A program made the position numbers and the translations under genes. Of a DNA stretch of 64,000 nucleotides, positions 15,001 to 64,000 are shown piece by piece. The DNA lies in assembly GCA_041662125.1 (NCBI GenBank), contig JBAZTA010000002.1:9064-73063 (forward strand), written 5' to 3'. Under the pieces are notes generated by a model. That model searched no databases and was not told where the DNA came from. It saw nothing but the letters and a program-made list of their open reading frames with translations. Each line of letters begins with the position of its first letter. The stretch's first letter is position 1. This stretch comes from Candidatus Omnitrophota bacterium. GTDB lineage: Bacteria > Omnitrophota > Gorgyraeia > Gygaellales > Profunditerraquicolaceae.

Positions 15001-18000
15001 GTTATACTTTAGAGTTTGTGCCTGGCCGTTTTGATATCAAGGCTTTTGGCACGGTCAATCCTAAACTGCATAAGTTTGTGCATGACGGTAGAGTAGTGAC
15101 CATCCGTCAGGATGGAACGCTGGAAGGGCCCACTCAGGCTCTTCAGGAACATTTCGGCGCAAATATAACCGGTAATTTCCGTTTAGTTTTGAGCCGCGGG
15201 AATCAATCAAAAGAAGTTTCTGTAACCGAGCTCCTGGAAATACCGGGCATAATGTTTGCCAGTAAATACCAGCCGTCTTTCCCATCTCCTTCAGGAACAG
15301 AGATAGTCGATTATTCCGCGGAAGGTATGCTCGCTCAGAAGCGTTTTAATGAACTGGGAGGAGAAAGCCAGTATCACACCTTTAGTAGATTTTCTTTTGG
15401 CAGCGCTCTTAACGACGGGAAAGAAGTTGCCGGAAGCCTCAGGTTTACCAGGCTTGATCGCGGACATTCGTTGCGGTTGGTAGAAGCGCTTCAGGAATAC
15501 GCGTTAGATAAAGAAAACAGCTTGATCGGTGAGTGGAAAAATAGCGGTATGATCGATACGCGGATTGAAGAATTCTTCCGCGGGCTGGGCGTAAATTATT
15601 TTGCTCTTCTGGCGACAGGTAAGCTGTTGATCATTCTGGGCTCTGGCCGTATTTTGCATATGACGCTTCCTGTCAGGATTATGCCTCTGGATGAGACCTA
15701 TAAGTTCTTCCTCTATAACGTTGATATTATCAAAGGCCGTTTAGCAGACCTGGGCGATTATCTGGATATAAAAGAAAGTACTAATGATGTTGATACCCTA
15801 AGAGATATCCGTGAATCGACCGCGATCATGCTGGCTATGGTTTCTCAGTTGATACGTGATCTAGAAACAGCCGGAATAACTCAGGCTGATGATGCCCGCA
15901 GGCAGAAGTTCCTGGGAGCTTTTGCGGAAGGCTTTGCCAATAAAATCGTGCAAAAAGAGCTTCTTCCTGCTCCTGTTATGTTGAATGATATTACCTATAT
16001 ACGTAATGAAGAGAAGGTGCTGTATCATCGTTTGCAGCGCATATCCCGCCAGAAACTTTCAGATAATTTTGAGAATTTAGTCCATCTTCTTACTGCAAGT
16101 ATTCAGCCGGTGATGGCGCAGTGGCCGGTATTAGATTTCTCAGATCCCTTAGCTTTTAACATGAATGCCAGTGTTCCTTATCGTTTCAGCCCTTACGAAG
16201 ATTACACAGACAGAACAAAATATCCCGATCTTTGGTCAGAAACCAGGTCCGCGCTTAAGCTGCTTGCTGAGAGCCAAAGGCCTCAAGGCTACCCGGCTTA
16301 TTTCTGGAAGATCCGGGGAGAAGAGCTTGCTGAAAGAAAAGATCTTTTGGGTAATGGAGGGCGTTTGGCAAAATTGACGGGCGCTCTTCATGAAGCGTTT
16401 AGCGCGCAGAAGAATACGGTTTACGTCGATGAGCAGAAAGTATCTTTATTTGAGGCTTTAGATGAGCTTAATGTTTTGATCAAAGAGTCCAAGAAGGCTT
16501 ATCAGTCTTCCTCGAGTGCGATAGAGGCAGAAAAGGATCAGGGCTGGAACAGTGAAGGTATCTGTATCGCGGCGCAGACGTTATACCGAAACACGCAGTA
16601 CGGATGGGCGCGGCGGTTTGTTGAGGACATATATCGGGCGAACGCGGGGAGCGAGTTATTTGTGGCAGCGGCAGAGCGAGCGTTAGGGCGGTTAATGTTT
16701 GTGAAGCATTACCGAGCAGGGGTGGGATATATCACGCATCAGGTAGGGTTATTGGAAAGTGTGCCGATCGAGAAGTGGGATGAAGACAGGTCGGTGATGA
16801 AGGTATTGAAATGGTATGGGAATGGAGAGGCAGTGAGGAACGCAGAAGCGATAGAATTTATCGTATCATTTTACGGGATACTGAAGTATTGTCAAGAAGG
16901 GCAGAATCAGAGGAAATGGTTTGTAGGTGAGATATTGAGCATGTTGGCGTGCGAGGAAACAGAAAGCGTGGCGTACCACCGAGCGTTAGGGGTGTGGGAA
17001 TTGATCAAAGGGAGGGTGAGCGAAGAGCATAAGGTATGGTGGAATAAAGTAGCAGGAGAAGCTCGGTTAGATCAGGCGGTGATGAACCGGTTGAGGATAT
17101 TGCTTGGGCAGAAAGAACCGCGGGGTAAGATCAACAGAAGATCGGAATATGAGTTAGATGGTGCGCGATCGTTTAGAGAGCGGTTAGGGATATTAAAGGA
17201 AGCGATCGTGGTGGAAGGCGTTGAAGGAGTGGTATTGCAGAAGGCAAGCGGAGATTACCAGGTGACGATAGGAGCGGACCTGTTGACGCATTCAGATTGG
17301 GAGTTAGACGCGAGAGTTCGGTGGCGAAGGAAAGGCCAGCAGCAGTGGCAGAGGACAAAGATGTATAGTATTGGCGCATACCGATGGCAGGGGGTATGCG
17401 AGATAGGAAAAGATGATCCTGAGGATTACGAGTATACGTTGACGGCCTGGGTGAATGTGGGGGAGACCTGGAGACAGAATATCCGTGAGCGATGTGTGCT
17501 TGCGCCTGAAGAGATCAATGATATCAAGAGCGATGTGCTGCTGGGGATAGAGTTATTAAAGCAGATGATCACGGAATACGGGTTAGAGGGCGAAGAGGCG
17601 GGGAAGGTGAATAAGCATATTGCGTCATTAGAGATGGAAGCGCAGTACGCGGGAGATATCTGTGTGATCTCAGAGCGGGACGAGTTGAAGGAATTGATGG
17701 TGAAGTATCCGTTACGAGACCATTTGATCAGGTATGAAACATACGGGCCGCAGCTGAAGGTGGTAGGGGATAAGGTGGTCAAGAACGATAAATTGGTATG
17801 GTTATGGAATGAAAAGCCGATGGTAGATGACGGAGAGTATTCGGCAAAGAGGATTGTAGGAGAAGTAATAGAGGTAGAGATAGATACGATCATTATAGAT
17901 ACGAAACGGGTAATGTTAAAGTACCGCAGGAAGTGGCAGGCAGAGCCGTGGCAGCAGACAGTGATGGAATGTGTGAGTAGGGATGGGGTATACCGGTGGA

Positions 18001-21000
18001 AAGGTAAATTTAAGGCAGAAGAAGTTGGTCGGTATGAGGTAAGTTTTGAGATAGAAGATGGCTCAGGGTTAGTGTACCGGTATGAAGATGAGATCACGGC
18101 GCTCGAAGTGATGGTGAGCCCGGAAGTGGCGCGGTTCGGGACGTGGTATGCATCGTTCCCGAGATCGTTTGGCGGGTTTCGTGGGTTGATCAAAGATATT
18201 GAGCGGGTAGCAGGAATGGGATTTGATGTTTGGTATTTACCTCCGATCTATCCGATCGGGATAACCAATAGGAAAGGGCGTAACAACAGTTTAGTAGCAG
18301 GAGCGAATGATCCAGGGTCACCGTGGGCGATCGGGAACATTTATGAAGAAGTAGAAGGAGACCGCGGCCATAAATCAGTGCATCCCGGATTAGGGACAAT
18401 AGAAGATTTCAGGAATTTCAGGGAAGCGGCAGAGTCAAAGGGGATGAATGTCGCGTTAGATCTGGCGTTCCAGTGTTCACCGGAGCATCCATATGTAAGG
18501 GATCATCCGGAATGGTTTTATTTGCGTCCGGATAAGAGCATCAAATACGCGGAGAACCCGCCGAAGAAGTACCAGGATGTATACCCGCTTAATTTTTATC
18601 CTGAAAATAACGGGGATATGGAAGCGTTATGGAATGAGTTGAAGAGCGTGGTAGAGTTCTGGGTCGTGCAGGGGGTGAAGATATTCCGGGTGAACAGTCC
18701 GTATAAGAACCCGTTTCGGTTCTGGCAATGGCTGATCGATGAGATCCATAAGGTGAATCCAGAGGTAGTGTTTTTATCAGCGGCATTGACGAATCCTAAG
18801 GCGCAGCGGTTATTAGCGAAAGCAGGGTTCCAGTTGTCGTATACGGATTATCCGGCGCGCAACGACCGTGCGCAGTTAGAGGAACTTATCAGCGATGCGC
18901 AAACAGGGATAGCGACGTGTCAGACAAAGGAATACTTAAGAGGGTTATTGCCGGCCAATACGCCTGACATATTATCGAATTGGTTGAGCCGTGTGCCCAA
19001 GACAAAGGTAGAATTAGAACGGGCGTTTAAGATAAAGTATTTGTTGATGTTTTTGTCTCCGAGCGTGATGATCTATGGGCCGGCGTATGAATTGTGCTGG
19101 AACCAGCAGGTAGAACAGGGCGGGGTGCGGGAGTACGAGGATTCAGAGAAGTACCGGATCTACAACTGGCCAGAGATCATAAAAGAGGCACAAGAGAATA
19201 ACCAAGCGGATATCAGCGGGTTTATCGCGATGGTGAACCGGATCAGGAGAGAACATCCGGCGTTACAGTCTGATGAGGTACGATTCATAAAAATAGAGGG
19301 ACAGGAGCACCGGCCGGAAGACCAGCATCATATGGTGGTGTTCATGAAACGCTCGGAGGATAAGACTGAGACGATGATCGTGGCGGTGAACATCGATGTG
19401 TCGGGCGCGATGCGCTGGGTGAACGCGACGATACCGGTACAGGAGATGGGGATCGGCTGGGGCCAGACGTATGTGTTGGAAGATGTATTGAACCAGGGGG
19501 AATCCTACACCAAGAACAGCGCGGTCGTTGGTATTGGCCGTGGCGGAGAAAAAGATATCGCCCATATCTTTATCGTGAAAAAATCCTCTTCGGCAATTTC
19601 TGGTTTTGATGCTGAAAAACTCTGTCTTACCGCGCAGTTGTGGTATGCCAAAGACCGTTTTACCTGGGCTGAGAGATTCAGCCAATACTATTGGGAGAAT
19701 GCGCAGTCGGAATTCTTCGTGCCTGCGGCGGAAATTGCCCTCGCAAGGTTGCTTTTTGATAAGAACTTCTACGAAGGGGTAGCGTATGTCTTGCACAGGG
19801 TTAACTTATTGGATCCTGCTCCTATATCTGCGTGGGGGGATGATAAGTCAGTCGTTAATGTCCTGAAATTGTATGGGAATGGTTCAGAGGGAAGAAGTAA
19901 TACCGAGATAGAAAGATTAAGTAATGAAATAGTTGATTTTATGGTTTCTTTTTACGGATTACTTGCGCACCGTAAAGAGGGACAGCGGCAGAGAAAGTGG
20001 TTTATAGGGCAGGTTTTGAGCATACTGGCCAATGAAGAGCCGCAGAGCGTTGCCTATGAACGGGCATTGTCCGTATGGCTGGGAATAAAAACTAAGGTTA
20101 ATGATGAACATATAACATTCTGGAATGAGATAGTAAGCGGGATCCCGCTTGAAGAAAATATCAATAACCGCATAAAAATATTCCTGGGTAAGAGAGATGT
20201 TCGGTCAAGAATCATCCGCAGGGCAGATTATGATGAAGCAAGCGTTAAACCCTTCAGGCAACGGTTAGGTATTTTAAAGGAAGCTATCGTTTTTGATAAT
20301 ATGGAAGGCGGGGTTGAGCAGTTGGGTGATGGCCGGTATAACGTTATTATCGATGTGGATATGCTGGTCCATGAAAGCTGGGAATTAGGAGCCAAGATAA
20401 AGTGGAGTTTAAAAGGGCAGGACCAGTGGCAAGAAGCCTCTATGTTTGGCATCGGAGCCTATCGCTGGAAAGGGATCTGTTATATCGATCAAGAAGCTCC
20501 CCAGGATTATGAGTATTCGATAGAAGCCTGGGTAAATGTCGGTGAGACCTGGAGGCAGGAAATTATCAAGCGCTGCCTGGCTGCTCCTCAAGAGACCGTT
20601 GATATTAAGAGCGATGTGTTGCAGGGTATTAAGTTGTTAAAGCAATTGAGCAGTGATCGTTGTTTTGAAGCAGGTCAACTTCCGCGGATCGATAATCTTA
20701 TCAGGCAGTTCGAGGATAAAAATGCTTCTTTACCGCAAGGTGAGCTCAGTTTTGAGGTAAGGCAGGATTACTCCAAGAGCGTTTGTCAGCTTGCGGATAG
20801 TGACGATATCAAAGGATTGATGTTTGAGTATCCGTTGCGCCAGCATCTGATCCGGTATGACGTGTACGGCCCGCAGATAAAGGTAACGGGAAATAAAGTC
20901 GTCAAAAATGATCAATTGACTTGGATATGGAATGAAACTCCGGTTGTCAATGGCGGAGAATATCCTGTTAAGCGGATCGTAGGAGAGCCGATAACTGCTA

Positions 21001-24000
21001 CGATGGAGACGATCATTATCGATTCTCAATCGGTATTGTTAAAGTATCGCCAAAAGTGGGGAGAAACTCTCTGGCATACGGTTGAAATGGAATGTATTAA
21101 TAAAGACAGGGCGTACCGGTGGCGGGGTGAGTTTATTCCTTTAGAAGTGGGGCGCTATGAGATCAGCTTTGAAATCCGAGATATCGCCGGGCAGGTATAC
21201 AAATATGAAGAAGAGATAACGCCGTTAGAAGTAATGGTAAGTCCTGTGGCAGCGCGCTTCGGGACCTGGTATGAATCGTTCCCGCGGTCGTTTGGCGGGT
21301 TTAAAGGGATGATAAATGATGTAGATCGTGTCGCAGGGATGGGATTTGATATATGGTATTTGCCTCCGATACATCCGATCGGAGAGACTAAGCGTAAAGG
21401 AAAGAATGGCAGCCTTACCCCCGAGCCTGGTGCTCCGGGTTCCCCATGGGCAATAGGTAATATTTCTGTAGCAGTTGAAGGGGACCGGGGACATAAGTCA
21501 GTACATCCTGATTTAGGGACAATGGATGATTTTAGAGATTTTGTCGCTGCGGCGCAAGCAGTCGGAATTAAAGTTTCCCTGGATTTCGCGTGTAATTATT
21601 CCCCGGACCATCCGTATGTGCATGATCACCCTGAATGGTTCAACCGTAGGCCTGACGGCAGTATTAAATACGCGGAGAACCCTCCGAAAAAATATGAAGA
21701 TATTTATCCTTTGAATTTTTATCCCGAAAAAGACGAGGATATGGAAGCGCTGTGGTTTGCTATTAAGGACGCGTTTGAATTCTGGATCGAGCAGGGCGTT
21801 ACCGTTTTCAGGGTCGATAACCCTCATAAAAAACCATACGGCTTCTGGCGCTGGCTCATCGATGAGATACATAAAAGACATCCGGAGACGATCTTCCTGG
21901 CTGAGGCTTTTACCAACGCCAAGATCATGAGGCTTTTAGCCAAATCGGGATTCCAATTATCGTATACCTATTATCCGTGGAAGAATAGCAAGCCTCAATT
22001 GGAAGAATTTATTTTAAATCCGGAAATAGGGATCATGACCTGCCGGACAAAAGAATATTTCAGAGGGCTTTTGTCGGCGAATACTCCGGATATACTCCCT
22101 GAGTGGCTCAGCCGTATTCCCAGAAATAAGGAAGAACTCGAGCGGGCGTTCATGATCCGCTATATCCTCATGCTTATGTCGCCGAGCGTGATGATCTACG
22201 GGCCGGCGTATGAATTATGCTGGAATATGCAAGAAAAAGAAGGCGGTTCTACGGAATACCGCGATTCCGAGAAATTTGAAGTAAAACGCTGTAAAGAATT
22301 TTTGCAAGCCGCAAAAGAAGATGCCTTGAAGTCTCCCGAGGAAAGATCTATCCCCGACATCAGCGGCTTTATTACCGCGGTCAACCGGGTGAGAAAAGAG
22401 CATCCCGCGTTACAATCAGACGATATCCGTTTCATCAGAATAGAAGAACAGAAGCGCCGTCCTGAGGACCAGCATTATATGGTCGGTTTTATAAAGAAGT
22501 CGGTTGATAAGAATGAAGTTGTCCTGGTCATCGTAAATATTGATCCTTCAGGTACCGAACGCTGGGTGAATGCGACAATACCGATTGAAGAGTTAGGCAT
22601 CGACTGGGGAGAGTCATATGAATTAGTTGATGTGTTGAATCCCGGAGAGAAGTATACCAGAGACAGCGCGGTCATTGAGCTCATCCGCGGCGGTAAGAAT
22701 AGGCCCCTTGCTCATATCTTCGTGCTTAAGAAATTGCAAGATAAGGCATCTTCAGCAATTGTAGCCGCCTCCAGTGCAATAGGGGCAGAAGAAGATTCCT
22801 GGAGCAGCGAGGGGATCTGTATCGCGGCGCAGACGTTGTACCGAAGTGCGCAGTACGGATGGGCATTGCGGTTTGTGGAAGACATTTACCGGCCGAACGC
22901 GGGGAGCGAGGGATTTGTGATGGCGGCGGAGCGCGCGTTAGGGCGGTTGTTGTTTGTGCGGCATTACCGCGCGGGAGTGGGGTATATCACGCATCAGGCG
23001 GGGTTATTGGAAAGTGTGCCGATCGAGAAGTGGGATGAAGACAAGTCGGTGATGAAGGTATTGAAATGGTATGGTAACGGTGAGGCGGGCAGGAACGCGG
23101 AAGCGGTGGATTTCATCGTATCATTTTACGGGATCCTGAAGCATTGTAAAGAAGGGCAGAATCAGCGGAAATGGTTTGTGGGGCAGATTTTGAGTTTACT
23201 GGCGTGCGAGGAGAGCGATAGCGTGGCGTACCACCGAGCGCTGGGGGTATGGGATCTGATCAAAGGGCGGGTGAGCGAAGAGCAAAAGGTGTGGTGGAAC
23301 AAGGTGATCGGGGAGGCGCGGTTAGACCAGGCGATATTGAACCGGATGAGGATCCTTCTTGGGCAGAAAGAACCCCGGGGGAAGATCCTGAGACGGGCAG
23401 AGTATAAAGAGGAAGCAGGGAAATCGTTCAGGGATAGGTTAGGGATATTAAAGGAAGCGATCGTGGTAGAAGGAGTGGATGGAGTGGTATCGCAGAAGTC
23501 AAGCGGGGATTACCAGGTAGTGATCGGGGCGGACCTGTTGACGCATTCAGACTGGGAGTTAGACGCGAGAGTGCGGTGGCGCAGGCGAGGGCAGCAGCAG
23601 TGGCAGGGTGCGAAGATGTATAGTATCGGAGCGTACCGGTGGCAGGGGGTTTGCGATATCGGGAAAGACGATCCTGAGGATTACGAATATACGCTATCGG
23701 CATGGGTGAATGTGGGAGAGACCTGGAGGCAGAGTATCCATGAACGCTGTGTGCTGGCGCCGGAAGAGATCGCTGATATCAAGAGCGATGTATTGCTGGG
23801 GATCGAGTTATTAAAGCAGATGATCACGGAATACGGGTTAGGGGGCGCAGAGGCGCTGAAGGTGAATAAGCATATTGCGTCATTAGAGATGGAAGCGCAA
23901 TACGCGGGAGATATCTGTATGATCACCGACCGTGAGGAGTTGAAGGAATTGATGGTGAAGTACCCGTTACGAGACCACCTGATCAGGTATGAAAATTACG

Positions 24001-27000
24001 GCCCGCAGTTGAAGGTGGTGGGCGAGAAAGTGGTGAAGAACGATAAATTGGTATGGTTATGGAATGAAAAGCCGATGGTCAATGACGGGGAGTACGCGGT
24101 CAAGCGGATCGTGGGAGAGACAGTCGAGATAGAGATAGATACGATCATCATAGACGCGAAGAGGGTCATGTTAAAGTACCGCAGGAAGTGGCAGGGCGAG
24201 GATTGGCAGCGCACGGTGATGGAATGTGTAAGCAAGGATGGGGTGTACCGGTGGAAAGGGGCATTTAAGGCAGAAGAAGTTGGGCGGTATGAGGTAAGTT
24301 TCGAGGTAGAAGACAGTGCGGGGTTAGTGTACCGGTATGAAGATGAGATCACGGCGCTGGAAGTGATGGTGAGTGCGGAAGTGGCGCGTTTCGGGACGTG
24401 GTACGCGTCGTTCCCGAGATCGTTCGGCGGGTTTAAGGGGATGATCAAGGATGTTGAGCGTGTCGCGGGTATGGGATTTGATGTATGGTATTTGCCTCCG
24501 ATCTATCCGATCGGGATAAGCAATAGGAAAGGGCGTAATAATAGTTTGGTAGCAGGGGAGAATGATCCCGGTTCACCATGGGCGATCGGGAACATCTATG
24601 AAGATGTGGAAGGAGACCGCGGTCATAAATCAGTGCATCCGGGTTTAGGGACAATCGAAGATTTCAGGATGTTCAGGGAAGCGGCAGAGTCAAAAGGAGT
24701 GAATGTGGCGCTGGATTTGGCGTTCCAGTGTTCGCCGGAGCATCCGTATGTAAGGGACCATCCGGAATGGTTTTACCTGCGGCCGGACAAGAGCATCAAA
24801 TACGCGGAGAACCCGCCGAAGAAGTACCAGGATGTGTACCCGCTTAACTTTTATCCTGAGAATAACGGGGACATGGAATCGTTATGGAAGGAATTGAGGA
24901 GCGTGGTGGAGTTCTGGGTCGCTCAGGGGGTGAAGATATTCAGGGTGAACAGCCCGTATAAGAACCCGTTCCGGTTCTGGCAGTGGCTGATCGATGAGAT
25001 CCATAAGAATAATCCTGAGGTGGTGTTTTTATCTGCGGCGTTGACGAACGCGAAGGCGCAGCGGATGCTGGCGAAGGCAGGGTTCCAGTTATCGTATACG
25101 AATTATCCTGCCCGGAACGACCGCGCGCAGTTAGAGGAGCTGATCAGCGACGCGCAGACAGGGATAGCGACGTGCCAGACAAAGGAATATTTAAGAGGGT
25201 TATTGCCGGCCAATACGCCTGACATATTATCGAATTGGTTGAGCCGGGTGCCGAAGACGAAGGTAGAGTTGGAACGGGCGTTCAAGATAAAGTATTTGTT
25301 GATGTTATTGTCGCCGAGCGTGATGATCTACGGGCCGGTATATGAGTTATGCTGGAACAACCAGGTAGAACAGGGCGGGGTGCGGGAATATGTCGATTCG
25401 GAGAAGTACCGGGTCTACGACTGGCCGGAGGTTATAAGGCAAGCGCACGAGAATGATGATGCGGACATCAGCGGGTTTATCGCGAAAGTCAACCGGATCA
25501 GGAAAGAACATCCGGCGTTACAGTCTGACGATGTGCGGTTCATCAAACTGGAGGGCCAGGCGCACCGTCCGGAAGACCAGCATTATATGGTGGTGTTCAT
25601 GAAACGGTCAATGGATAAGTCTGAGGCGATGATCGTGGCGGTGAACATCGATGTATCCGGGGCGATGCGCTGGGTGAACGTGACGGTGCCGGTGCAGGAG
25701 CTGGGGATCGGCTGGGGCGAGACGTATGTGTTGGAAGATGTATTGAACCAGGGTGAATCCTACACCAAGAACAGCGCGGTGGTGGGTATCGGCCGTGGCG
25801 GAGAAAAAGATATTGCCCATATCTTAATCGTGAAAAAATCCTCTTCGGCAATTGTGGTTGAAGATGCTCTGCGTGCCCGGATAAGCGAACTTGGGATAGA
25901 AAGAGATGGAATTGGAAAAATTTTAACAGTTCGAATCAAAGAATGGGAAAACATTCAGGCAGTAATCGTTTCTTTAAAGTCTGAACATAGAACAAAATCC
26001 GGCGAAGCTGACAGGATCTGGGCAAAGACGGCAGATGTAAGAGCAAAAATACGGCTTTATTCTGAAGGGCTTGTTTTTTGGAAAAAGTTTTTGCGTTTTT
26101 TCTGGCCGTCTTCAGAACAAAGAGAAGTAAGGATAAAGGAACGTCTTTGGAAGAATTTGGTAAAGCAACGCGATGCCTTAATGAAGGATATTCGGAAAGC
26201 GCAGGCGGAAGAAAAAACTTTTGCAGGTGGGGTTAAACAGTTACAAGGCAACGTCTTTGTTATTAATGGTGAAATAGAAAAGCTTCAGAGGCAGCTTGAT
26301 GCCTTTAATAGTCCTATCCCACAGAAAATATTGGCTCCTGCAGTGGCTGATGTTTTGTCTGAAGCTGCTGCTGGTGTTTGCGTTGCTCAAAAGACGAGAG
26401 TTCCTGTGTGCCAGGAAGCTTCAAGAGCAGCCGCGCAGGGAAAACCCGTTATTCGCGTTTCGGCGAAACAGGCAAAAGCTTTGGTAGAGAATTTGACAGA
26501 ACATATCACCTTGTCCTATATCAAGGCGAATCAAGAAAACATGGTTGAACTTCTTGCGGCAGTTTGCGGAGAGTTGCCTTTAGAGCGCCTGGCAAAGCTT
26601 TTGGCTCAATACATGTGGCTTGACCCTTCTCAAAAACATATTATAGATGCGATCATGGACCGATTCACCAGCTTTGATCTTGGTATCTTTCAAGGTGTCT
26701 TTCAGGCGTGGGATACGCTTGAGAATATCGCTTTCGCCGAAAATACTTTCCAGGTTTATCTCCTCAAGAGGAATAGTGGAAATAATAGCCAATGGAAACA
26801 AGAACAACTGTTAAATGATTTAGCCGAGCAGCTTAAAAAGCAGCCGGGAACCAAAAGGTCAAAGAGTTCTTTAAAGATCGATAATAGTCATTTTGGACTG
26901 TATCATGCCCGCATCGATTCTAATAATTGGCGTATATTCTTCCGGATCAATTGTGATGAGAAAATAATCATTATTGTGGATATAGTTACGAGAGCGGAGT

Positions 27001-30000
27001 TAGATAAAACAGGGGCATATGATGAAAAAATAATCGTATTATTGGCAGGTAAATCAGCAGTGGTTTTGTTGCAGGAATATGATGTTATTCCTTACGGCAA
27101 TCTCGTTATTCCTGAACAGGCATTAATCAGGAAAGTCCAGCAAACAAGGGTTTCTGCTTCGCCTATTTCGAAAAATTTTTACGCTGAAAAGAAAACGTTT
27201 ACAAATTTAGTTGGGTTGCGGAGGTATGTTTTGGGCTTACCTCTTCCGTGGCTGGTGGGGGGCCTTTACTCCGCAGCCCATACTAATAATCAAGGAGGTT
27301 TCGGATGCTTAGTCAATATCAATTCAGTCAGTTACAGGTCTTACAGCTCAGGGTTTTATCTTCCCGCGATGTGGTTGTCTATACATGTGTTCCTGATTGC
27401 CAAACAGTATTTGAGTTTATCCTCTCGCCTTTGGGGTACGCGTGGGGAAAATCACCGGGCGGCTGGCTTGAGCTTACCTATGAATGCGCCGAGCAGATCA
27501 GGGAATTACTCCACGGACAAATTAAAGAAATCCCTATATATTTTGAAGGGCAGTCCTTGGGCAGCGCGTAATCGGGCTTATGCTGTTTTTGCCAGCAGCG
27601 CGCTTGAACATAATAGTTCAGCAGCACCTTATTCTTTAATTACTTCAGGCAAGCTTAAGCAATATGCTCGTTTCTGGTCGTTTTTGAGCCTTGGTTTGGG
27701 TGCTTTATGTGGCTTCTATAAGTTTGATTTTGTTAATTTGCCTTTTGTTTTTGTAACGATACTTTTGCTTGCGGTAATTATATCCACACAAGCATATGTC
27801 GTGCGCAGTTTGGAGGAGGTAATTACAGTTTATAATAAAGGAATAGAGGCTGATAACGGGAGTATTTGTTTCTTAGATGCTGCTCAAAATATTGTTGTTC
27901 ATCCGGCGATCCTTGCTGCCTCCCAGGAGAAGATACTGTCCCGTATCCTGATAACATTCTTGTCTCCCCTTTTGATCCTGCATAAAATAAACAATAAAAT
28001 TGTTTCTGCTATCTTACGCAGGGTATCTTTAACGCATCAACCTGTAAAGATGCTTTTACCCGTAGTTGATAGAACAGGAAGCTTCTTGTCATATACTTTG
28101 GGCGGCTATGTTTATGTTATGGCGCTGGAAGCGCTCACGATGATCATTACCTTACCATACGGAGTATTGCCTGCTTTCTTGTATCTTTTTGTTGTCAGTA
28201 TAGTGCCTTATTCCTTGGTGAGTGAATATCTTAATTCTCTTTGGATGAGCCGGTATTTAAGCCAGCAGTTAGGCAAAGCGTTGGTGGAAAAGGCAGAAGC
28301 GCGAGAATCGGCGATACGGGATCCTTTGACCGGCGCCTATAATCGTAGGTACCTTGATGAGGAATTGCCGAAATGGACTGCACGCGTCAGAAGAGGCAAA
28401 GATGAACTTTCGATCCTGATGCTCGATATCGATTTCTTTAAGAAAGTCAATGATACCTATGGCCATACAGCAGGAGATGTTATCTTGAAGGGAGTTTCTC
28501 GATTGATCCATGATTCGATCCGTACCAATGATTCATTATTCCGTTACGGAGGGGAAGAGTTTTGCCTTGCCTTGTCATGTAAATTAGCGGATGCCGTTGT
28601 GAAGGCGGAAAAGATACGGAGGGTGATAGAGGAATATGCGTTTAATCATCGTGGCGTTGAAATCAGTGTTACGGTCAGTATTGGGGTAAGCGAGTTTGAT
28701 AAAGAAAATATCGATGACAGCCATAAGGATGTTATTGAGCGGGCGGACAGAGCGCTTTATGAAGCTAAAGAAAGCGGCAGGAATAAAGTAGTGGCAAATA
28801 CCTTCGGCTCCAGCAGCTCTGCAATAAATAATAATCAGCTTAAAAAATATTTTATGAGTCTTTATTCGTATGCCGCAGGGCGAGCAGTTATATTGAATAC
28901 TAACGCGGCTCAGGCGCATATGGTATCATTGCCGATTGTCAGGGTTACAAACTTGCCCGAAGCACTCAAGATATTGGCAGATGAATCCTTTGGAAGATGG
29001 TTGGATATACAGGGGGCGTGGCGCGCTGAGCATACCATGGATATAGATGATTATCGGGGTTTTCTTACGGGTAAAGCAGAAGAGCCGGGGGAGTTATACC
29101 TTGTCTTTTCGTTACAGCCTTCTGTTATAGATGTTGAAGGTTTTGTGAATCTTAAGGTTTCCTTGTTGGGGCAGGATATGCGCGTTGTCCATGAATACGC
29201 GTTTCTGGAAATAGCGCCATGGAACCGGTGTCCGGTGGATCAGCGACGCTATTCAGGGCTCGGGCATGAATTGAGAATTTTTGGTATTCAGGAATTATTA
29301 TCACATGACCAAAAAATAGTACAGCAGGTTACCCGTGATAAAATCAGGGTTTTAGGCCACCGGGATGTTGCAGGGGATATTTTTGAGGATGGCATACACC
29401 GGGGGTATGTGGAGGAATATCTAACCGTTCAAGCAGAGAAAAGGCGTTTATGTATTGAAATGTTCGGCTTACAAGATGAAGCTGATATTCCGAGTTCATC
29501 TCCGATTAAAATTCCAGAAAAGGCGCAAGGAAAGGCTGAAGCTGTTTATGGTAAGAATAAAGTTTTATTCAAAAGACAACTCAAAGGTTTTGATATCGGC
29601 CTTCCTGGCGCTTTCTATAATGAAAAACATTACCATGTAATAAAAGATGGCCTGGAGAAGTTTGCTCCTCTTAGTTTGCGCGCGCCTCCTCTGTGGGCTT
29701 TGGAGATCACAACTTCTCTGTCATCCACCGGCGGAGAATATATTGCTTTAGATGCACTTTCTAGAACCGTTATTATTCATCCTGCCTATTTTGACCTTCC
29801 GCAAAAAAGCCAATTAGTGGCCCTGGCTAGTAAGCTTATTTTGATATTCTTGGGGATAGAACATAAATCATTATCAGAAACCGCGGCAGAGTCACTGGTG
29901 TCCAATAATAAGAATATGCTCCGGTTACTTTCTTCTCTTATCAACCTTCGTACTAAGCTTACCTATAGTTGCCTGTCACTCCATGATATTGAAGCAGCGC

Positions 30001-33000
30001 TGGAAGTTTATCTTTCAATCAGCGCGCCTCGGTACGCAGCAGCCTATTTTGAAATCGGATTAAGCGTATTAACACATATTCTGGACGTTTTGGAGATCTA
30101 TGTTGAATTCGTGGATCATGTGTCGTTTAATGCCCAAGCGCTTGTCGCGTTATTAATACATATTAATCCGACAAGGGAAACTAATTCCTTAAGCAGGTAT
30201 TTAAAGAAAAAATATATTAATGATAAGGCTACCAGAGACTATGTAGTATTAATGCAGCGGTTTAATTCTTTGCCTGCTTTACGGATCGTCAGAGGTGAGG
30301 ATGCTTTAGAAAAATATATCTGTATGATTTTAATGTTGTCAGGTGTTCATGGGATCATATTGGTGCTCGCCGATAAGCTTGCTTCCGGCAGGCATCTAGA
30401 GACAGTTGAGGAGAGGATCTCGTGGGCAAATGAAGTGCATTGTATTTACGCGCCTTTAGCTGAATTTTTGAAACTAGAAGGCCTTGATCGGCAATTCAGG
30501 GAAGTCGTTTTTTCTTATACGCATATCTATGAGCAAGTTGTTGCTGCGGTCCAGGAAATTATGGGAGGCAGGAATTTCCTGGAAGCACAGGATTTCCTGA
30601 AGGCAAAATCAGAAGAAATACAGCTTGGCCTGGCAGGAAAAACCATTTTTATTGAAGAGATTTTGTTCCGCGTGAAAGACGCTTATACCTGCTGGAAAAA
30701 GGCAATGACAAAGAAAGAATATGACAAAGATATCAAAAGGTTGAAAGATGTTTTTGGGGTCACGATCATCAGCAGGCAAAGGAATGATGTGTATCATATC
30801 TTGAGTTATTTATTAAGTAATTTCCCTTTGCAGGATCTTTCTGAAGAAAATCCCGAGTATAAACATCATAATAAGGAATTCGCAGGCATCCAAGCTCAAT
30901 GGAACGAGCATGTTGTTTTTATCAATATTGAAGGTGTGCCTTGCGAGGTCCAAATATTCTCCCGGGAAGATTGGAAAGCAAAGCAAATGTTTGACCGTCC
31001 GCATTGGGTATATAAATTAAGCCGTGAAAGCGCCGGCAAACATTACGCAAAGAACAATGTGGCTGATATTGAAATTGTATCCGGCCATATGAAAGGCATG
31101 AGGAGAGGTGCAGTCTTATTGCGCATGCCTCCGCAAAAATATGATTTGATTTCTTCCTGGCAAAGTATAAGCATGGAACAATACGAGGAAGTCATAGCGC
31201 TGATACGTAATAATACTTATTCAATGGTAATTCATCGGTCTCGTAAATATCCCGGGGTCCTGGAATTAACTTTCTCCGCGCTTGAAAATAAGCCGGGAAA
31301 TTTGAGAAGCCTTTTTGCTTTATTTGGCACACAGATGAAGAAAGTAGTCCCGGCGTATGGGCAGAATTTTAACTTAAGATCATCGCGGTTGTTCTTACTT
31401 CCTGTCCAAGGAAAAGTCGAAACCGGGGACATATTCTTGTCGGAAGCCGAGCATATGGTTGCCGGATCTGCGATCCATGCGCAAAGCAGCTCAAGCATTG
31501 TTAAGGAATTATTGCGGCCGTTGCGGTTCAAACGATTTGGTTTACCTTCCGTGGCTGGTGGGGGCCGGATCGCCGCAGCGGCCGTATTTATTTCGTCTTC
31601 CCCGATTTCTGCGCCGGTTGATGGGCTGATCTTTGGGTTTATCATTGCCGCAGGGTATCAAATTGGAGATGAAACTGTTTCGAGGAATTATTTTATCCCT
31701 CTCCATGTCTCTTTTGACCCGTATAAGACAATCAGCGGCAGTGAAGAAGAACGCCTTATCAATAATCTCCCTGAAATAATTATTGAGCAGGTTGAATGGT
31801 TAAGGCAGCAAAGATGGTTTATTGATAAAGGCAATAGCAAGCAGTACGCTCTGGAAATAAAAGATTTCTTTGTCTTGAGATGTAAAAACAGCATCAGCGA
31901 TAGTGATTTTATAAAGCAATTAGGCGGGATGTATGTTAATAAAATAAATGATCTCTGTCTGGTATTGGCGGAATATACGGATAGTTATTATCAGTCCTTG
32001 TTTGAGTGTATGGCCAGGGGAGCCAGTATTTTGACGCGCAATGATAATGTCGTTGAATTTAGGCATTTTAATGCCGTCTCAGGCATCGAAGAAGTTGAAA
32101 TTGAGAAAACTGATACGTTAGGACTGCCTTCTTCAAATGTGTTAATCCCGCTTCTTGGAAGGCAGGGTATCAAAGTATTATATAAGACATATAAAGTAGT
32201 TGGTATTAATCCGGAAGCAGAGCTTTTATCTGTGCTTACTGAACAGGGTTATTCTGCTATTCCGCGGTTACTTGGGACAGTTGTTTATCGTAAGGGTGGT
32301 GAGGTGGAAATGCCTTTAGGTATATGTATGCAGAGGATTGAGAATCAAGGTGATGGGGGTGGCGTTATCTGGGGTTGTTACGATCAGGTGATCGGAAATC
32401 ATGCGCCGGCGCAAAATGAAATAGTGAAGCAGTCTACAATAACACAACTGAAAAAAATGGCTCAAACTCTGGCATCATTCCATATTGCTTTGGCGCGGGT
32501 AAATGATGATAAATATATTCCCCTTGTATCGTCTCAAGAAGATAGGGGGCTCTGGGTTTCCGGAGGAAGCACGTATTTGAAACAAGCGACCCGTCTGCTC
32601 CGGGAAACAAAAGGTTCGGATACAATTGATTCGGTGAAATCACGGCTGCAGAGTTGCGAAGACAGTTTTGATGCTGCTTTAAGCGGAATAGTCGGTGCGC
32701 GAACTTTAGTCAAGGGGCGTATCCATGGTGATTTTCATTTTAGCCAGATACTCCGCAGTACCACAGGCCAGTATATCATTATAGATCTGGAAGGAGAGCC
32801 GTTGGCAAGCCCGCATCAGCGCTGGGAAAAGAAAACTCCTTTGCAGGATGTGGCAGGAGCAATAAGGTCATTTGGGTACATCAAACATCTGATCTACGCG
32901 ATCAAAGCCGGTTATATTAAAGGAGAGGAGATCGGACAGGAAATAAATGGAGAAGCAAAATATAAAGCGTCAATTGACTTCTTGGAAAAGAAGAATGATC

Positions 33001-48000: not shown

Positions 48001-51000
48001 GAGGGATTGTTGGAGAAGATGGCATAGAAGGCGTAGAATTGACAGAACCATATATAGCATTTCAGAAAGAATTAGTTGCGCTTAAACTGAAAGGATTTTT
48101 GTTAGCCATTAATAGTAAAAATAATCCTATTGACATATTTGAGAGGGATTTAAGATGGAATAGGGGAATATTCGCGAAACGCCAGGAAATGGTATTAAGG
48201 GGAGAAGATTTCGCAGTTATGCAGGTTAATTGGCAAGATAAAGCGGAGAATTTAAGGAAAATAGCGTTGGAATTAAATATAGGTTTAGAGAGCCTGCTTT
48301 TCCTAGATGATAGCGTTCATGAGCGTGAATTGGTAAGGCAAATGTGTCCTGAAGTGTTTACTCCTGAATTTCCCACTGATCCTGAGCAATATGCTGATTT
48401 TATTAAAAATTTAGCTGTTTTACAGAAAGATATCGTTACTGTCGAGGATAGGAGGAGGTCAGAGTTATATCTAATACAGCGGGAAAGGCAAGAGTCAAGA
48501 GCAAGGGCTGGTTCATACGAAGAATTCTGCCGTTCTTTAAATATTAGAATTATTATTAGAGAAGGAGCTGAAAACCTTCCCTATCTATCCCGATTGTCAC
48601 AGCTTACTCAGAGAACGAATCAGTTTAATGTCAGGGGTAGCAGGTATGATGAAGTAACAATTACTTCATTCATAGATAACCAGGATTATTTGGTTTATAG
48701 CTTGGAGTTGATGGATCGTTTCGGAAATGATGGGATTGTTGGCTTGATTATTGTCCGTAAGTTTGAAAGAGTCTATTGGATAACGGCTGAAGAGAATGCT
48801 TGGATTATAGATACGTTTTGTTTAAGTTGTCGAGCAATAGGCAGGACTGTAGAATGGGCATTTATGAGTAATGTTGTTGACCGGTTAAAAAGTAAGGGAG
48901 TAAATCTTTTAATAGGAGAGTATGTTCGTACGGAAAGGAATGAATTAGTTAAAGATATCTATGGAAAGTTTGGTTTCTCAAGACGTAACGATACATGTTT
49001 CTGGAAAGCGCAGGTTGCTTGTTTAACTGTTAAGGCGCCGGATTGGGTAAAGATTGAACGATCCAGTTCTCCGATCCTGGTAACTCAAAATAAAACCATG
49101 CCTGCCTGCCGGCAAGGCATGGACTATCGACCATGGACTATCGACCCGAAGAACAATATTAACACCAGAGGAGCTCTGATGACTACGTGCGGCACGCAGC
49201 GTGTTCTTGGCCGGCAGTGGAGTTCTTCAGCTATTCGCAGAGTAACAAAAGATGAGCAGGACAGTAAAGTCCTTGCCGGCGTCCCGGTTATATTGAATCA
49301 AGCCGAAGAAACGGTGCAGGGTAAGATTGAAGAACTCAGCAGTGAGCATCTTCCTTTGTTCCGTGATTGGTATCATTCCTCGTGGATTTCGTTCGGGAAG
49401 CTTAATTTATTTGATCAGGGCCATGTAGAGTCGTTATTTCGATATTCCTCGCCCCGTCAGAAAACTTTTGTTGCCTTAACAGAGATCCCGGGCTTTGATG
49501 AGATACTGTATAACAGATTCGGTTTTTTAAAGAATAGGTTTGTGGTTTCAGGGCAAAAGCAGGTCCAAGGCGCTGTCAATATCAGTATTAATTATAAGAG
49601 TGTTATTATCGATCAAATCGAGACTGCGCCATGGAATCAATTCAGGAAAAATCCAGTTGTTTCTTTAGTGGGGAGTAGTTTAATTTGGTTTGTTTGCTCT
49701 CGGTATATAAAGGCAACCAATCGAGTCCTTCGTATTCGTGACCCATCGCCTCAAGGGATAGAATTCTTTAAACACTTATTCTTCCGCCAATCTTTGCACT
49801 ATACCGCTGATGAAGTTGGGAGTTTTATACGACGATACGAAAACCTTTATAAATCTTTTTATCATCTTTCTTCTTCCAGTATTCAAACTATTCAGTTAGT
49901 CAAGAGTATTTCAGCGTCTCCTGTAAGAAAAGTTAAGGTTGATTCTATCAGCGAACTTGCTGAGGGGCATGATTTTTGGGTTTATGATTTTCGCCTGCAA
50001 TTCAGGCATTACCGTTTGGGCCTGCTTCATGAAGTCTTTCAAGCTTTAGGGAAAGAGGGTAAATTCTATTGGATCGAATGGCGCCAGCATTTGAAGCCGC
50101 AGGTGATCCATTTGGGAGTTGAAGCCCAGACAGTGGAAGACGCGCTCATGATCAAAGAGCGGTTATCCGGGATCGAGGACAGGATAGATCAAGATTTCGA
50201 AACATCGTATAAAGACCGGGAAAAATGGATCATGGAGTTTCGCATTCCTCATGACATGGAGCAGGTCAGGGCAATAACGCAGTATTTATATAAACAGGAT
50301 ATTAATATCAGCGCTTTCTTTACTCCCCGCCTGAGTGATGGCTGGGATGAAAAGAAGAGAAAAGCGGATTTTCTTTTTGAAATACAGTCTCCTCATGATT
50401 TCCAACCGGAAAGAATAATCAGGAACATTAAAAAGATGATCGGCTCCGATAAATTCTCTCTTGAACGCAGGGACCTGATCGGTAAGATAATTTCCTTGTT
50501 ATCAGCTCAGTGTAATATAGCTTTCAATAATGACGAGAGAGAGCTGATGAGGAAGGCATTTGAGGTAGTCGCCTCCAAGCATGCCAGTCAATCAAGAAAA
50601 GACAAGGTAAACCCGTATTTTTCTCATTTGATCGATGTCGTTAAAATGCTCCTGGTTGATTGTAAGCTTCGGGATATTGACCGTAAGCTTCGTCAGGTCA
50701 TTATTATCGCCGCTATACTCCATGATAGCCTTGAGGAAAAAGATATTACTGATGAAGTCCTCCTGGAGATTTTCGGGCCGCGCGTATATAGGATAGTTAA
50801 ATTACTCACGAAGCATTCTAAGAATGGCGCTCTTAATTTGAAAGAATATTATACGAAATTAAACCGGGCAGAAGGAATAGAAGGCGTTATCGCTCGGCTA
50901 ATAAAAATGGTTGACCGTATTCAAAATGTGGCGACCATGACAGGCAGGTTCTTGAAACCTGATTTTGTGACCCAGAATTTTATCGAAACCCAGGAAGTTT

Positions 51001-63920: not shown

Positions 63921-64000
63921 GAGAAGCGTGAAAATAGCCTTTATCGCGGCTCACACGGGTGTATCCGCGAACAGGAGGAAGATGCCTCACGGTTGTTCAA
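63738..64000 (+). other. L,D-transpeptidase (YkuD/ErfK) catalytic domain, interrupted by the frame-0 TAG at 63918. The catalytic Cys motif lies in the -1 (frame 2) reading.
   Basis: Frame 0: IGENPGNTPLGWHRITRFDRWHKSSSYKTPDGLPAPMYWGLQLDGSRIWLHQG then RLPLLF*. Frame 2 from 63899: EIAAPLLEKRENSLYRGSHGCIREQEEDASRLF (compare YGIHGT...SHGCIRMxNEDxxELF). The junction is at the GGGG run 63896-63899. Confidence 0.65.

Follow-up and report, generated by a model that had tools for sequence, protein, structure and literature searches.

The closest described counterparts of the locus considered here are the giant genes of Omnitrophota, among which the Archaeovorin class consists of a single open reading frame (ORF) encoding more than 30,000 amino acids (aa). 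The 20 most frequent domains of this class include Radical_SAM, TPR, PPDK_N, NUDIX, GGDEF and HAD_2, and PilZ genes were seen just 3' of Omnitrophota giant genes (bioRxiv 10.1101/2023.11.21.568195). The same work states that the cleavage points of these proteins are unknown and names the borders of units and cleavage sites as an obstacle to structure prediction and to deciding on cleavage, and a 2026 survey (bioRxiv 10.64898/2026.06.07.730766) makes no mention of cleavage or motifs. The DNA stretch analysed here, referred to as the window, comprises 64,000 nucleotides (nt) of contig JBAZTA010000002.1 from a Candidatus Omnitrophota bacterium (assembly GCA_041662125.1, positions 9,064 to 73,063 of the forward strand). 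It carries, in the middle of a giant ORF, a cyclase unit with a membrane-anchored GGDEF domain and a RelA-like unit related to the RelA/SpoT homologues (RSH). We regard it as probable that both form a signalling cassette, in which an active-looking cyclase is paired with a RelA-like enzyme and the units are bounded by a recurring junction motif.

The reading frame beginning at nt 3 contains no stop codon over 21,332 codons and is open across the entire window, whereas the other five frames contain 746-1,973 stops each; the signalling features are thus truly located mid-ORF. This ORF extends past both window ends and comprises at least 21,332 codons, amino acid i corresponding to nt 3i to 3i+2 of the window. 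A Pfam scan of the whole translation detected phosphoribosyltransferase, NAD-epimerase, ROK kinase and dehydroquinate-synthase-like domains, four radical-SAM domains, DUF218, NAGPA, four GlgE/alpha-amylase-like units, a ParE-toxin-like domain, GGDEF, RelA_SpoT, GH77, TPR, methyltransferase, HD_4, HAD, NUDIX, GFO/IDH/MocA, GT4, PPDK_N with PEP-utilizers, and YkuD. In common with the Archaeovorin giants (West-Roberts et al. 2023), the window shows a single ORF of tens of kilobases with scattered transmembrane (TM) segments and a domain set of Radical_SAM, TPR, PPDK_N, NUDIX, HAD_2, GGDEF and glycosyltransferases, and the nearest of its relatives on a long contig carries the annotation Candidatus Omnitrophota. 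In contrast, the HEAT repeats, SecA-like and N-terminal peptidase domains of Archaeovorins were not seen in this 64-kb piece, and the main text of the Archaeovorin paper mentions no RelA/SpoT unit, junction motif or cleavage points (bioRxiv 10.1101/2023.11.21.568195). By these sequence features the window probably belongs to the giant ORFs of the Omnitrophota Archaeovorin type. An earlier note on this DNA, made by a model from the sequence alone, had placed signalling domains inside a giant metabolic polypeptide, and the single open frame with its many metabolic enzyme domains agrees with this view. Its description of the arrangement as unusual was overstated, given the frequency of GGDEF in Archaeovorins and the PilZ genes just downstream of such genes (bioRxiv 10.1101/2023.11.21.568195). 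The cassette is composed of the following features:

27591-28811, + strand: cyclase unit (Unit 1), with a junction motif at its start
27591..27605, + strand: junction motif ASSAL (aa 9197-9201), start of the cyclase unit
27672..27797, + strand: predicted first TM hairpin (aa 9224-9240 and 9243-9265), with a hydropathy of 2.58 in the second helix, the short loop FDFVN and a K/R-rich flank on the N-terminal side
28089..28223, + strand: predicted second TM hairpin (aa 9363-9384 and 9389-9407), with a hydropathy of 2.06-2.14 and the four-residue loop PYGV
28224..28310, + strand: helical linker from the last TM helix to GGDEF (aa 9408-9436), deduced from the sequence and near-invariant in three orthologues
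28311..28787, + strand: GGDEF diguanylate cyclase domain (aa 9437-9595), from Pfam, TIGR00254, the PleD alignment and orthologues
28521-28532, + strand: I-site RTND
28548-28562, + strand: A-site GGEEF
29493-31592, + strand: RelA-like unit (Unit 2)
29493..29915, + strand: N-terminal 'head' domain of the RelA-like unit (aa 9831-9971), starting with the junction motif SSSPI
30021..30464, + strand: degenerate HD domain, a predicted pseudo-hydrolase (aa 10007-10154), from an HD_4 match below the cut-off, the alignment with M. tuberculosis Rel and a fold match
30669..31019, + strand: RelA_SpoT synthetase-type domain (aa 10223-10339), from a Pfam match above the cut-off, invariant residues, a structural model and a fold match
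31020..31592, + strand: C-terminal tail of the RelA-like unit, without recognisable TGS or ACT
31593..31607, + strand: junction motif SSSPI (aa 10531-10535), end of the RelA-like unit

The intact-looking cyclase that had been proposed around RYGGEEF (nt 28542-28562) and RDPLTGAYNRRYLDEEL (nt 28317-28367) was borne out. The GGDEF domain matched the respective Pfam profile over its full length (positions 1-161 of 161, E 1.9e-41, 142 bits with a cut-off of 23.8) and the NCBIfam model TIGR00254 with 172.8 bits (cut-off 37.4), and the closest solved structure was PleD (E 1.6e-31). The PleD alignment retains DIDFFKKVND, GD, RTND, GGEEF and RADxALYEAKxSGRN, with RADRALYEAKESGRN aligned as well. Residue roles in GGDEF domains are established from PleD and WspR, and the metal- and GTP-binding residues of PleD are D327, N335, D344, K442 and R446. 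The segment RTND-SLFRY-GGEEF aligns to RAID-LPCRY-GGEEF of PleD, with the RxxD I-site, which is typical of GGDEF cyclases although not obligatory, five residues ahead of the A-site. All catalytic residues including RADRALYEAKESGRN are invariant in the window and in the orthologous loci L001 and L002, and the ratio of nonsynonymous to synonymous substitution rates (dN/dS), calculated against these two orthologues according to Nei-Gojobori, is 0.15-0.17 for the GGDEF domain and 0.27-0.35 for the TM region. The cyclase carries the sequence features of an active, product-inhibited enzyme and would synthesize cyclic di-GMP (c-di-GMP), most likely as a dimer, with the helical linker before the GGDEF domain having a presumed role in dimerisation. 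The product may be sensed by PilZ proteins like those reported beside such giant genes.

The TM topology was deduced solely from Kyte-Doolittle hydropathy with a window of 19 residues. Strong peaks upstream of the GGDEF domain are located at aa 9243-9261 (2.58) and, as a double peak, at aa 9366-9406 (2.06-2.14), with weaker peaks at aa 9224-9240 and 9311-9329. The helices of each pair, 9224-9240/9243-9265 and 9363-9384/9389-9407, are separated by gaps of just 2-4 residues, and both hairpins are conserved in L001 and L002. Hydropathy and flanking charges suggest four TM helices in two hairpins, with both chain ends and the GGDEF domain in the cytoplasm, and aa 9311-9329 as part of a cytoplasmic insert of about 100 aa between the hairpins rather than as a fifth TM helix. 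A relationship of this insert to the head domain of the RelA-like unit was considered and rejected, as the head-domain hidden Markov model (HMM) matches aa 9831-9971 alone. The membrane anchor of about five TM segments that the earlier note had described was accordingly retained as an anchor but read as four helices. Similarly, its suggestion that the chain crosses or anchors in a membrane holds for the anchoring; at the cyclase, with both ends predicted on the same side, the chain would not carry large domains through the membrane. The cyclase would therefore be tethered by two TM hairpins to the inner face of the cytoplasmic membrane.

The RelA-like unit contains the segments IYAPLAEFLKLEG (nt 30444-30482), GVPCEVQIFSREDWKAK (nt 30933-30983) and HWVYKL (nt 31002-31019), in which an RSH-type pair of HD and synthetase domains had been recognised. 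The synthetase domain matched Pfam RelA_SpoT with E 1e-8 and 35.7 bits (cut-off 27), and the HD part matched HD_4 with 19.7 bits (E 7.4e-4), below the cut-off of 27.2. Significant sequence matches in the PDB were restricted to RelA, Rel and SpoT, among them residues 138-366 of E. coli RelA (E 1.4e-8) and residues 36-355 of M. tuberculosis Rel (E 1e-5). An AlphaFold model of the core, calculated with an alignment of 41 homologues, reached a predicted local distance difference test (pLDDT) value of 79.6 and a predicted template modelling score (pTM) of 0.79. Foldseek placed the catalytic domains of S. aureus Rel at the top (E 5e-11, TM-score 0.56/0.65) within a leading group (E 5e-11 to 1e-6, 343-394 aligned columns) that also includes the catalytic halves of T. 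thermophilus Rel, RelA and SpoT, with small alarmone synthetases far behind the long RSH proteins (E 3e-4 versus 5e-11). In the model, nt 29973-31142 thus adopts the two-domain fold seen in the catalytic half of long RelA/SpoT proteins, a prediction that is not in doubt.

The proposed RSH pair was thereby confirmed as a two-domain fold by Pfam and Foldseek, although with a dead HD domain and a non-canonical synthetase. In the alignment with M. tuberculosis Rel, the HD active site retains the first His, whereas LLHD is replaced by LIHI and VEDT by NPTRE, with loss of the ED pair. The His-Asp and ED pairs are needed in hydrolase-competent Rel/SpoT proteins and are absent in RelA. The HD domain beside the synthetase is consequently classified, by its residues, as a pseudo-hydrolase and may serve as a scaffold. 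On the synthetase side, K10225, K10233, D10249 and E10315 (K235, K243, D259 and E325) are invariant in a 42-sequence alignment, and the window likewise carries the near-invariant R233, Q327 and H..YK residues H344, Y347 and K348; in the R.K...S...K core motif the Ser is changed to Thr. The retention of metal and ATP-phosphate residues, along with the loss of the stacking Tyr and two Arg residues discussed below, points to an enzyme that probably transfers pyrophosphate and differs from RelA in acceptor or regulation. The RelA-like unit would move pyrophosphate from ATP to an acceptor that is maybe not GDP or GTP; synthesis of (p)ppGpp by this unit is possible on the basis of its residues. In view of the missing TGS and ACT domains, the unit is not expected to be under ribosomal control.

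The cyclase and RelA-like units are paired in two further giant ORFs at 66-74% identity, namely L001, a 9.7-kb contig from a bin labelled Planctomycetales (72% identity), and L002, an 838-kb contig of a Candidatus Omnitrophota metagenome-assembled genome (67% identity). The single frame is open throughout in L002 and, apart from one stop near the contig end, in L001. Catalytic and deviant residues of both units are identical in the three orthologues. The dN/dS values of the cassette (GGDEF, pseudo-HD, synthetase and TM region) range from 0.12 to 0.35, with 0.12-0.21 for the pseudo-HD domain and 0.13 for the synthetase, and aa 10346-10480 of the tail show values of 0.08-0.13. Both units are under purifying selection. 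An exhaustive HMMER search yielded 178 relatives, the best being a 5,805-aa protein with 34% identity, and many of the top relatives are pieces of very long proteins. Among 16 aligned relatives, 14 belong to a divergent clade of giant-protein units and stand-alone proteins, in all 14 of which the Asp of the HD pair is lost; the Arg and Tyr positions vary, and the Asp and Glu of the synthetase are always kept. Hydrolase loss is clade-wide and the synthetase motifs are altered in most members; by its sequences this clade, to which the RelA-like unit belongs, is an undescribed RSH variant. A word-indexed protein search with the combined cyclase and RelA-like query returned generic GGDEF proteins only, covering 11-16% of the query, and returned nothing for the RelA-like unit alone or for the orphan unit described below; giant proteins are evidently poorly represented in this database. 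A metagenome scan yielded the L002 contig only, and the GTDB species genomes contained no match to an exact 50-mer taken from the window.

The borders of the units coincide with the motif [SA][SA]S[AP][IVLM], which occurs 32 times in the window compared with 0.7 copies expected from shuffles, the strict form SSS[AP][IVL] being represented by 21 copies with 0.16 expected. Ordinary GGDEF proteins, used as a control with 116,279 residues in total, contained only 2 copies. All 32 sites in the window fall outside the 33 Pfam domain intervals (P about 1e-4), and examples are found at aa 1320, 5503, 6528, 8613, 9604, 9831, 10531 and 18878. The Ser residues are specified by all six kinds of Ser codons, which indicates conservation at the protein level. 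Three paralogous GlgE-like units of 1,025 aa each begin exactly at the motif (SSSAI or ASSAI), gains and losses of units among the window, L001 and L002 are bounded by it, and it is kept at orthologous junctions with variation inside it. Moreover, the motif takes the place of the first residues or initiator Met of a stand-alone enzyme, as in SSSAI-TITGHTGDIG, where it precedes the Rossmann strand of an epimerase. In-frame Met codons are scarcer near the junctions (4 versus 10 expected) and Shine-Dalgarno-like sequences near them are not enriched, so that the units are not separately initiated and internal translation starts at unit borders are not supported. The motif was also detected in L001, L002 and several giant-protein fragments (P0124, P0125, P0133, P0137 and P0200) and is absent from other such fragments, for instance P0121. 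Its distribution suggests that the motif marks former gene boundaries and may represent a processing site.

A number of observations weigh against the proposed cassette. The window contains a single GGDEF domain, and a dimer would need two chains or released units; neither a PilZ protein nor another c-di-GMP effector was found within the window. All three synthetase motifs deviate from the consensus, with DVFGVT for DxxGxR, GIQAQW for GYxSxH and EVQIFS for ExQxRT, and they are altered in all three orthologues (DVFG(V/I)T, G-I for G-Y, and EVQIFS), the acceptor-stacking Tyr being replaced by Ile and two conserved Arg by Thr and Phe. In FaRel2, Y128 stacks on the pyrophosphate acceptor, is highly conserved and essential, and its loss ends activity, whereas D90 binds Mg2+ (10.1101/2021.04.30.441581); the Tyr missing from the window corresponds to Y128 and the retained Asp to D90. 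The acceptor loop is a low-confidence part of the model (residues 297-309), the NCBIfam RelA/SpoT model TIGR00691 gave 51.6 bits with a cut-off of 499 and aligned at positions 96-320 of 687 only, and no TGS or ACT was found, nt 31035-31592 having no Pfam match at E up to 1. Loss of essential catalytic residues, which the earlier note had named as a sign of degenerate domains, does therefore not apply to the intact GGDEF domain but in part to the RSH half (LIHI, DVFGVT, GIQAQW, EVQIFS). Read together with the dead HD site, the variability of the Tyr and Arg positions in the entire Omnitrophota-type clade and the inactivity of FaRel2 once the equivalent Tyr is lost (10.1101/2021.04.30.441581), these replacements could indicate a catalytically dead scaffold or sensor that binds a nucleotide or a partner and makes no alarmone. 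We consider this rather unlikely, as the metal Asp and Glu, the R/K/K residues of the first motif and H..YK are kept, although a dead enzyme could have let them drift; the dN/dS of 0.13 denotes constraint but fits active and dead cases alike. The combination of intact donor-side and metal residues with a rebuilt acceptor-side motif would also suit a synthetase acting on a non-guanine acceptor, either an adenine nucleotide or an RNA 3' end, in the manner of the toxic small alarmone synthetases, and a ParE-toxin-like unit is located directly upstream in all three loci. This variant is distinctly improbable in our view, because toxic small alarmone synthetases retain the stacking Tyr (10.1101/2021.04.30.441581), the fold is nearer to long RSH halves than to small synthetases (5e-11 and 3e-4, respectively), and no antitoxin-like partner was identified.

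Another question is whether the units act within one chain. The giant ORF might be a polyprotein that is cut at the junction motif, with the cyclase and the RelA-like enzyme acting separately, which is compatible with the cassette proposed here. The enrichment of the motif, its protein-level conservation, its location outside domains and at paralogue starts and indel borders, its position in place of the initiator Met of a lone enzyme and the absence of separate initiation (Met depletion, no Shine-Dalgarno enrichment) speak for cleavage, and so does the published statement that the cleavage points are unknown (bioRxiv 10.1101/2023.11.21.568195). On the other hand, the window yielded no protease domain, the head domain of related giants has an HExxH that is lost here, and a similar pattern could arise without cleavage where a short Ser-rich linker runs into the opening hydrophobic strand of the domain behind it, so that we hold this alternative only tentatively. 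The more general proposal that the motif is a bacterial polyprotein processing signal, with dozens of enzymes made as a single chain and afterwards released or hinged at its sites, including a membrane-tethered c-di-GMP synthase and a RelA-like pyrophosphokinase whose acceptor site is rebuilt, is put forward as a rather unlikely one from the sequence pattern; if true, it would supply the cleavage map that published work on Omnitrophota giants lacks. Finally, the continuous frame could be an assembly or annotation artefact or a decaying array of pseudogenes, for which the swing of the G+C content from 0.35 to 0.51 along the window, suggestive of a mosaic origin, might be quoted. A run of 21,332 codons without a stop, as against 746-1,973 stops in each of the other frames, the recurrence of this open frame and unit order in two independent assemblies and the purifying selection on each enzyme unit tested render this explanation extremely improbable.

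Apart from the cassette, five further features of the window were defined:

27153..27167, + strand: junction motif SASPI (aa 9051-9055), end of the ParE-like unit, with an equivalent at the same junction in L001 and L002
27172..27555, + strand: nucleotide-conserved in-frame stretch of about 380 nt upstream of the cyclase, from third-position identity and dN/dS
28812..29492, + strand: orphan unit of 227 aa (aa 9604-9830), bounded by SSSAI and SSSPI and absent from L001 and L002
31521..31579, + strand: partial repeat of the hairpin part of the conserved stretch, holding the empty target site of a mini-element, CTTCCGTG|GCTGGTGGG, from 31546
50556..50999, + strand: second RSH-type HD domain, similar to small alarmone hydrolases and followed by a HAD phosphatase, from HD_4, Rel and MESH1 matches

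The RSH-type HD domain that had been predicted at 50.6-51.0 kb, 20 kb downstream of the cassette, was verified by matches to HD_4 (E 6.6e-10), the HD domain of M. tuberculosis Rel (E 1.2e-10) and MESH1 (E 4e-9). Its His-Asp pair is intact and the motifs ILHDSLEE and VDRIQN retain the R, H, HD, E, D and N positions; judged by these residues, the domain looks like a competent small alarmone hydrolase. It would remove the product of the RelA-like unit by hydrolysing the alarmone. The additional TM segments that had been noted at 10.0 kb and 46.4-46.6 kb are likewise present by hydropathy, at aa 3336-3354 (2.46) and at aa 15482-15500 and 15516-15534.

The stretch upstream of the cyclase has counterparts in L001 (2603-2995) and L002 (8227-8744). 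Its nucleotide identity is 87-88% and its identity at third codon positions is 0.88-0.95, with an amino acid identity of 0.65-0.80; dN/dS values are 1.58 and 1.17 with synonymous rates (dS) of 0.09 and 0.18, whereas the flanking units show a dS of 0.4-1.5 and a dN/dS of 0.08-0.35. The stretch is conserved as DNA rather than as protein. Rfam gave no match, either at gathering thresholds or with E values of up to 10, and neither a tRNA nor a tmRNA was recognised. The folding energy was no better than that of shuffled sequences on both strands (z-scores 0.08 and 1.14), no promoter or terminator signal exceeded chance, a 25-mer from the stretch was absent from viral contigs, and all alternative frames across it are closed. 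RNAalifold analysis of the three sequences predicted one 12-bp helix with too few covariations to decide, the apex of which carries a 138-nt insertion in L002.

An 80-nt palindromic mini-element is present in L002 (8302-8381 and 12158-12237) and L001 (6470-6549), in frame and stop-free, and the corresponding sites in the window, 27243 and 31546, are empty. With inverted ends of 15 nt, CCCCGTTGGAAAATA / TATTTTCCAACGGGG, and a CGTG duplication of 4 nt, the element adds 28 codons, and its loop holds a copy of its own target, CTTCCGTGGCTGGTGGG. The two copies in L002 are identical and are read in two different frames.

In L001 and L002 the RelA-like unit directly follows the cyclase unit, and the 227-aa orphan unit of the window thus represents an insertion. 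Searches of Pfam, the PDB and protein sequences yielded no homologue of this unit, a single-sequence AlphaFold model (pLDDT 37.7) was unusable, and a guess that it is GNAT-like was dropped as unsupported. The head domain of the RelA-like unit matched no Pfam family. This domain of about 140 aa recurs in P0121 and about 15 other giant-protein fragments with the pattern xYPLxVP...GRAPP...ITTDLxLTQGNVAAC...IHPYFF...ILYHELISHI, which includes the HExxH signature typical of zinc peptidases. Five stretches of P0121 match the query, several head-domain copies being visible in its sequence. The window holds one copy in which HExxH is replaced by SKLIL and SSSPI is aligned to xYPL of the others. The head domain could be a self-processing module in related lineages.

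With regard to the neighbourhood of the cassette, three tandem GlgE/alpha-amylase-like paralogues of about 1,025 aa each, with a mutual identity of 56-88%, occupy positions 16509-25838 of the window (aa 5503-8612). Their G+C content of 0.45-0.51, compared with 0.35-0.44 in the rest of the window, suggests a recent acquisition or duplication. A candidate linker motif, 'GSPWA', was discarded, since three of its four copies represent a motif conserved within the GlgE-like paralogues. The adjacent region 25839-27152 (aa 8613-9050) encodes a unit with a ParE/RelE-type toxin domain at its end (Pfam E 8e-5, right at the cut-off), which is kept directly upstream of the cyclase cassette in both L001 and L002 and for which no antitoxin partner was recognised. 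Near the end of the window, a lone hydrophobic helix (aa 21082-21100) precedes a YkuD L,D-transpeptidase domain (63246-63998, aa 21082-21332), an enzyme type working outside the cytoplasm; in this region the chain may genuinely cross the membrane, unlike at the hairpins by the cyclase.

GGDEF domains in Omnitrophota giant proteins have already been published, and the presence of GGDEF and RSH domains in such a gene therefore adds little alone. The RSH member is, however, divergent, and its clade is a candidate for a new acceptor specificity. The conserved pairing of the cyclase with the RelA-like unit and the hydrolase-type HD domain in the same chain suggest that the giant protein has its own c-di-GMP and alarmone-type control. 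Since unit and cleavage borders were named as an obstacle (bioRxiv 10.1101/2023.11.21.568195), the junction motif provides a testable hypothesis for where units start and stop. Further attention is best given to this motif and to the stretch ahead of the cyclase that is conserved as DNA.

Comparison with known systems yielded a mixture of shared and deviating characters. The mini-element resembles the palindromic elements of Rickettsia, which insert into coding genes. Viral polyproteins and engineered 'fuse-and-cleave' Nif polyproteins (PMC6130400) likewise combine enzymes in one frame with a recurring junction peptide, but for the window the cleavage is putative, no protease domain was detected and the motif is unlike known viral protease sites. 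The second HD domain aligns with M. tuberculosis Rel at the R, H, HD, E, D and N positions like MESH1 and bacterial small alarmone hydrolases, from which it differs by EE in place of ED and by fusion to a HAD phosphatase in a giant chain. With E. coli RelA, its best PDB sequence match, the RelA-like unit shares the order of a pseudo-HD and a synthetase domain, the H..YK motif and an acidic stretch ahead of the conserved Tyr of the 'DY' pair. It deviates from this protein by lacking the TGS, zinc-finger and ACT region, so that ribosome and tRNA sensing is not expected, by replacement of the stacking Tyr and two Arg residues and by a score of 44 bits with the NCBIfam RelA model (cut-off 728). 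The cyclase differs from PleD and WspR in being embedded in a giant chain and in its input, which consists of two predicted TM hairpins and an insert of about 100 aa of no detectable family instead of a receiver domain, whereas its GGDEF domain keeps GGEEF, the I-site RxxD and the metal- and GTP-binding residues of these cyclases.

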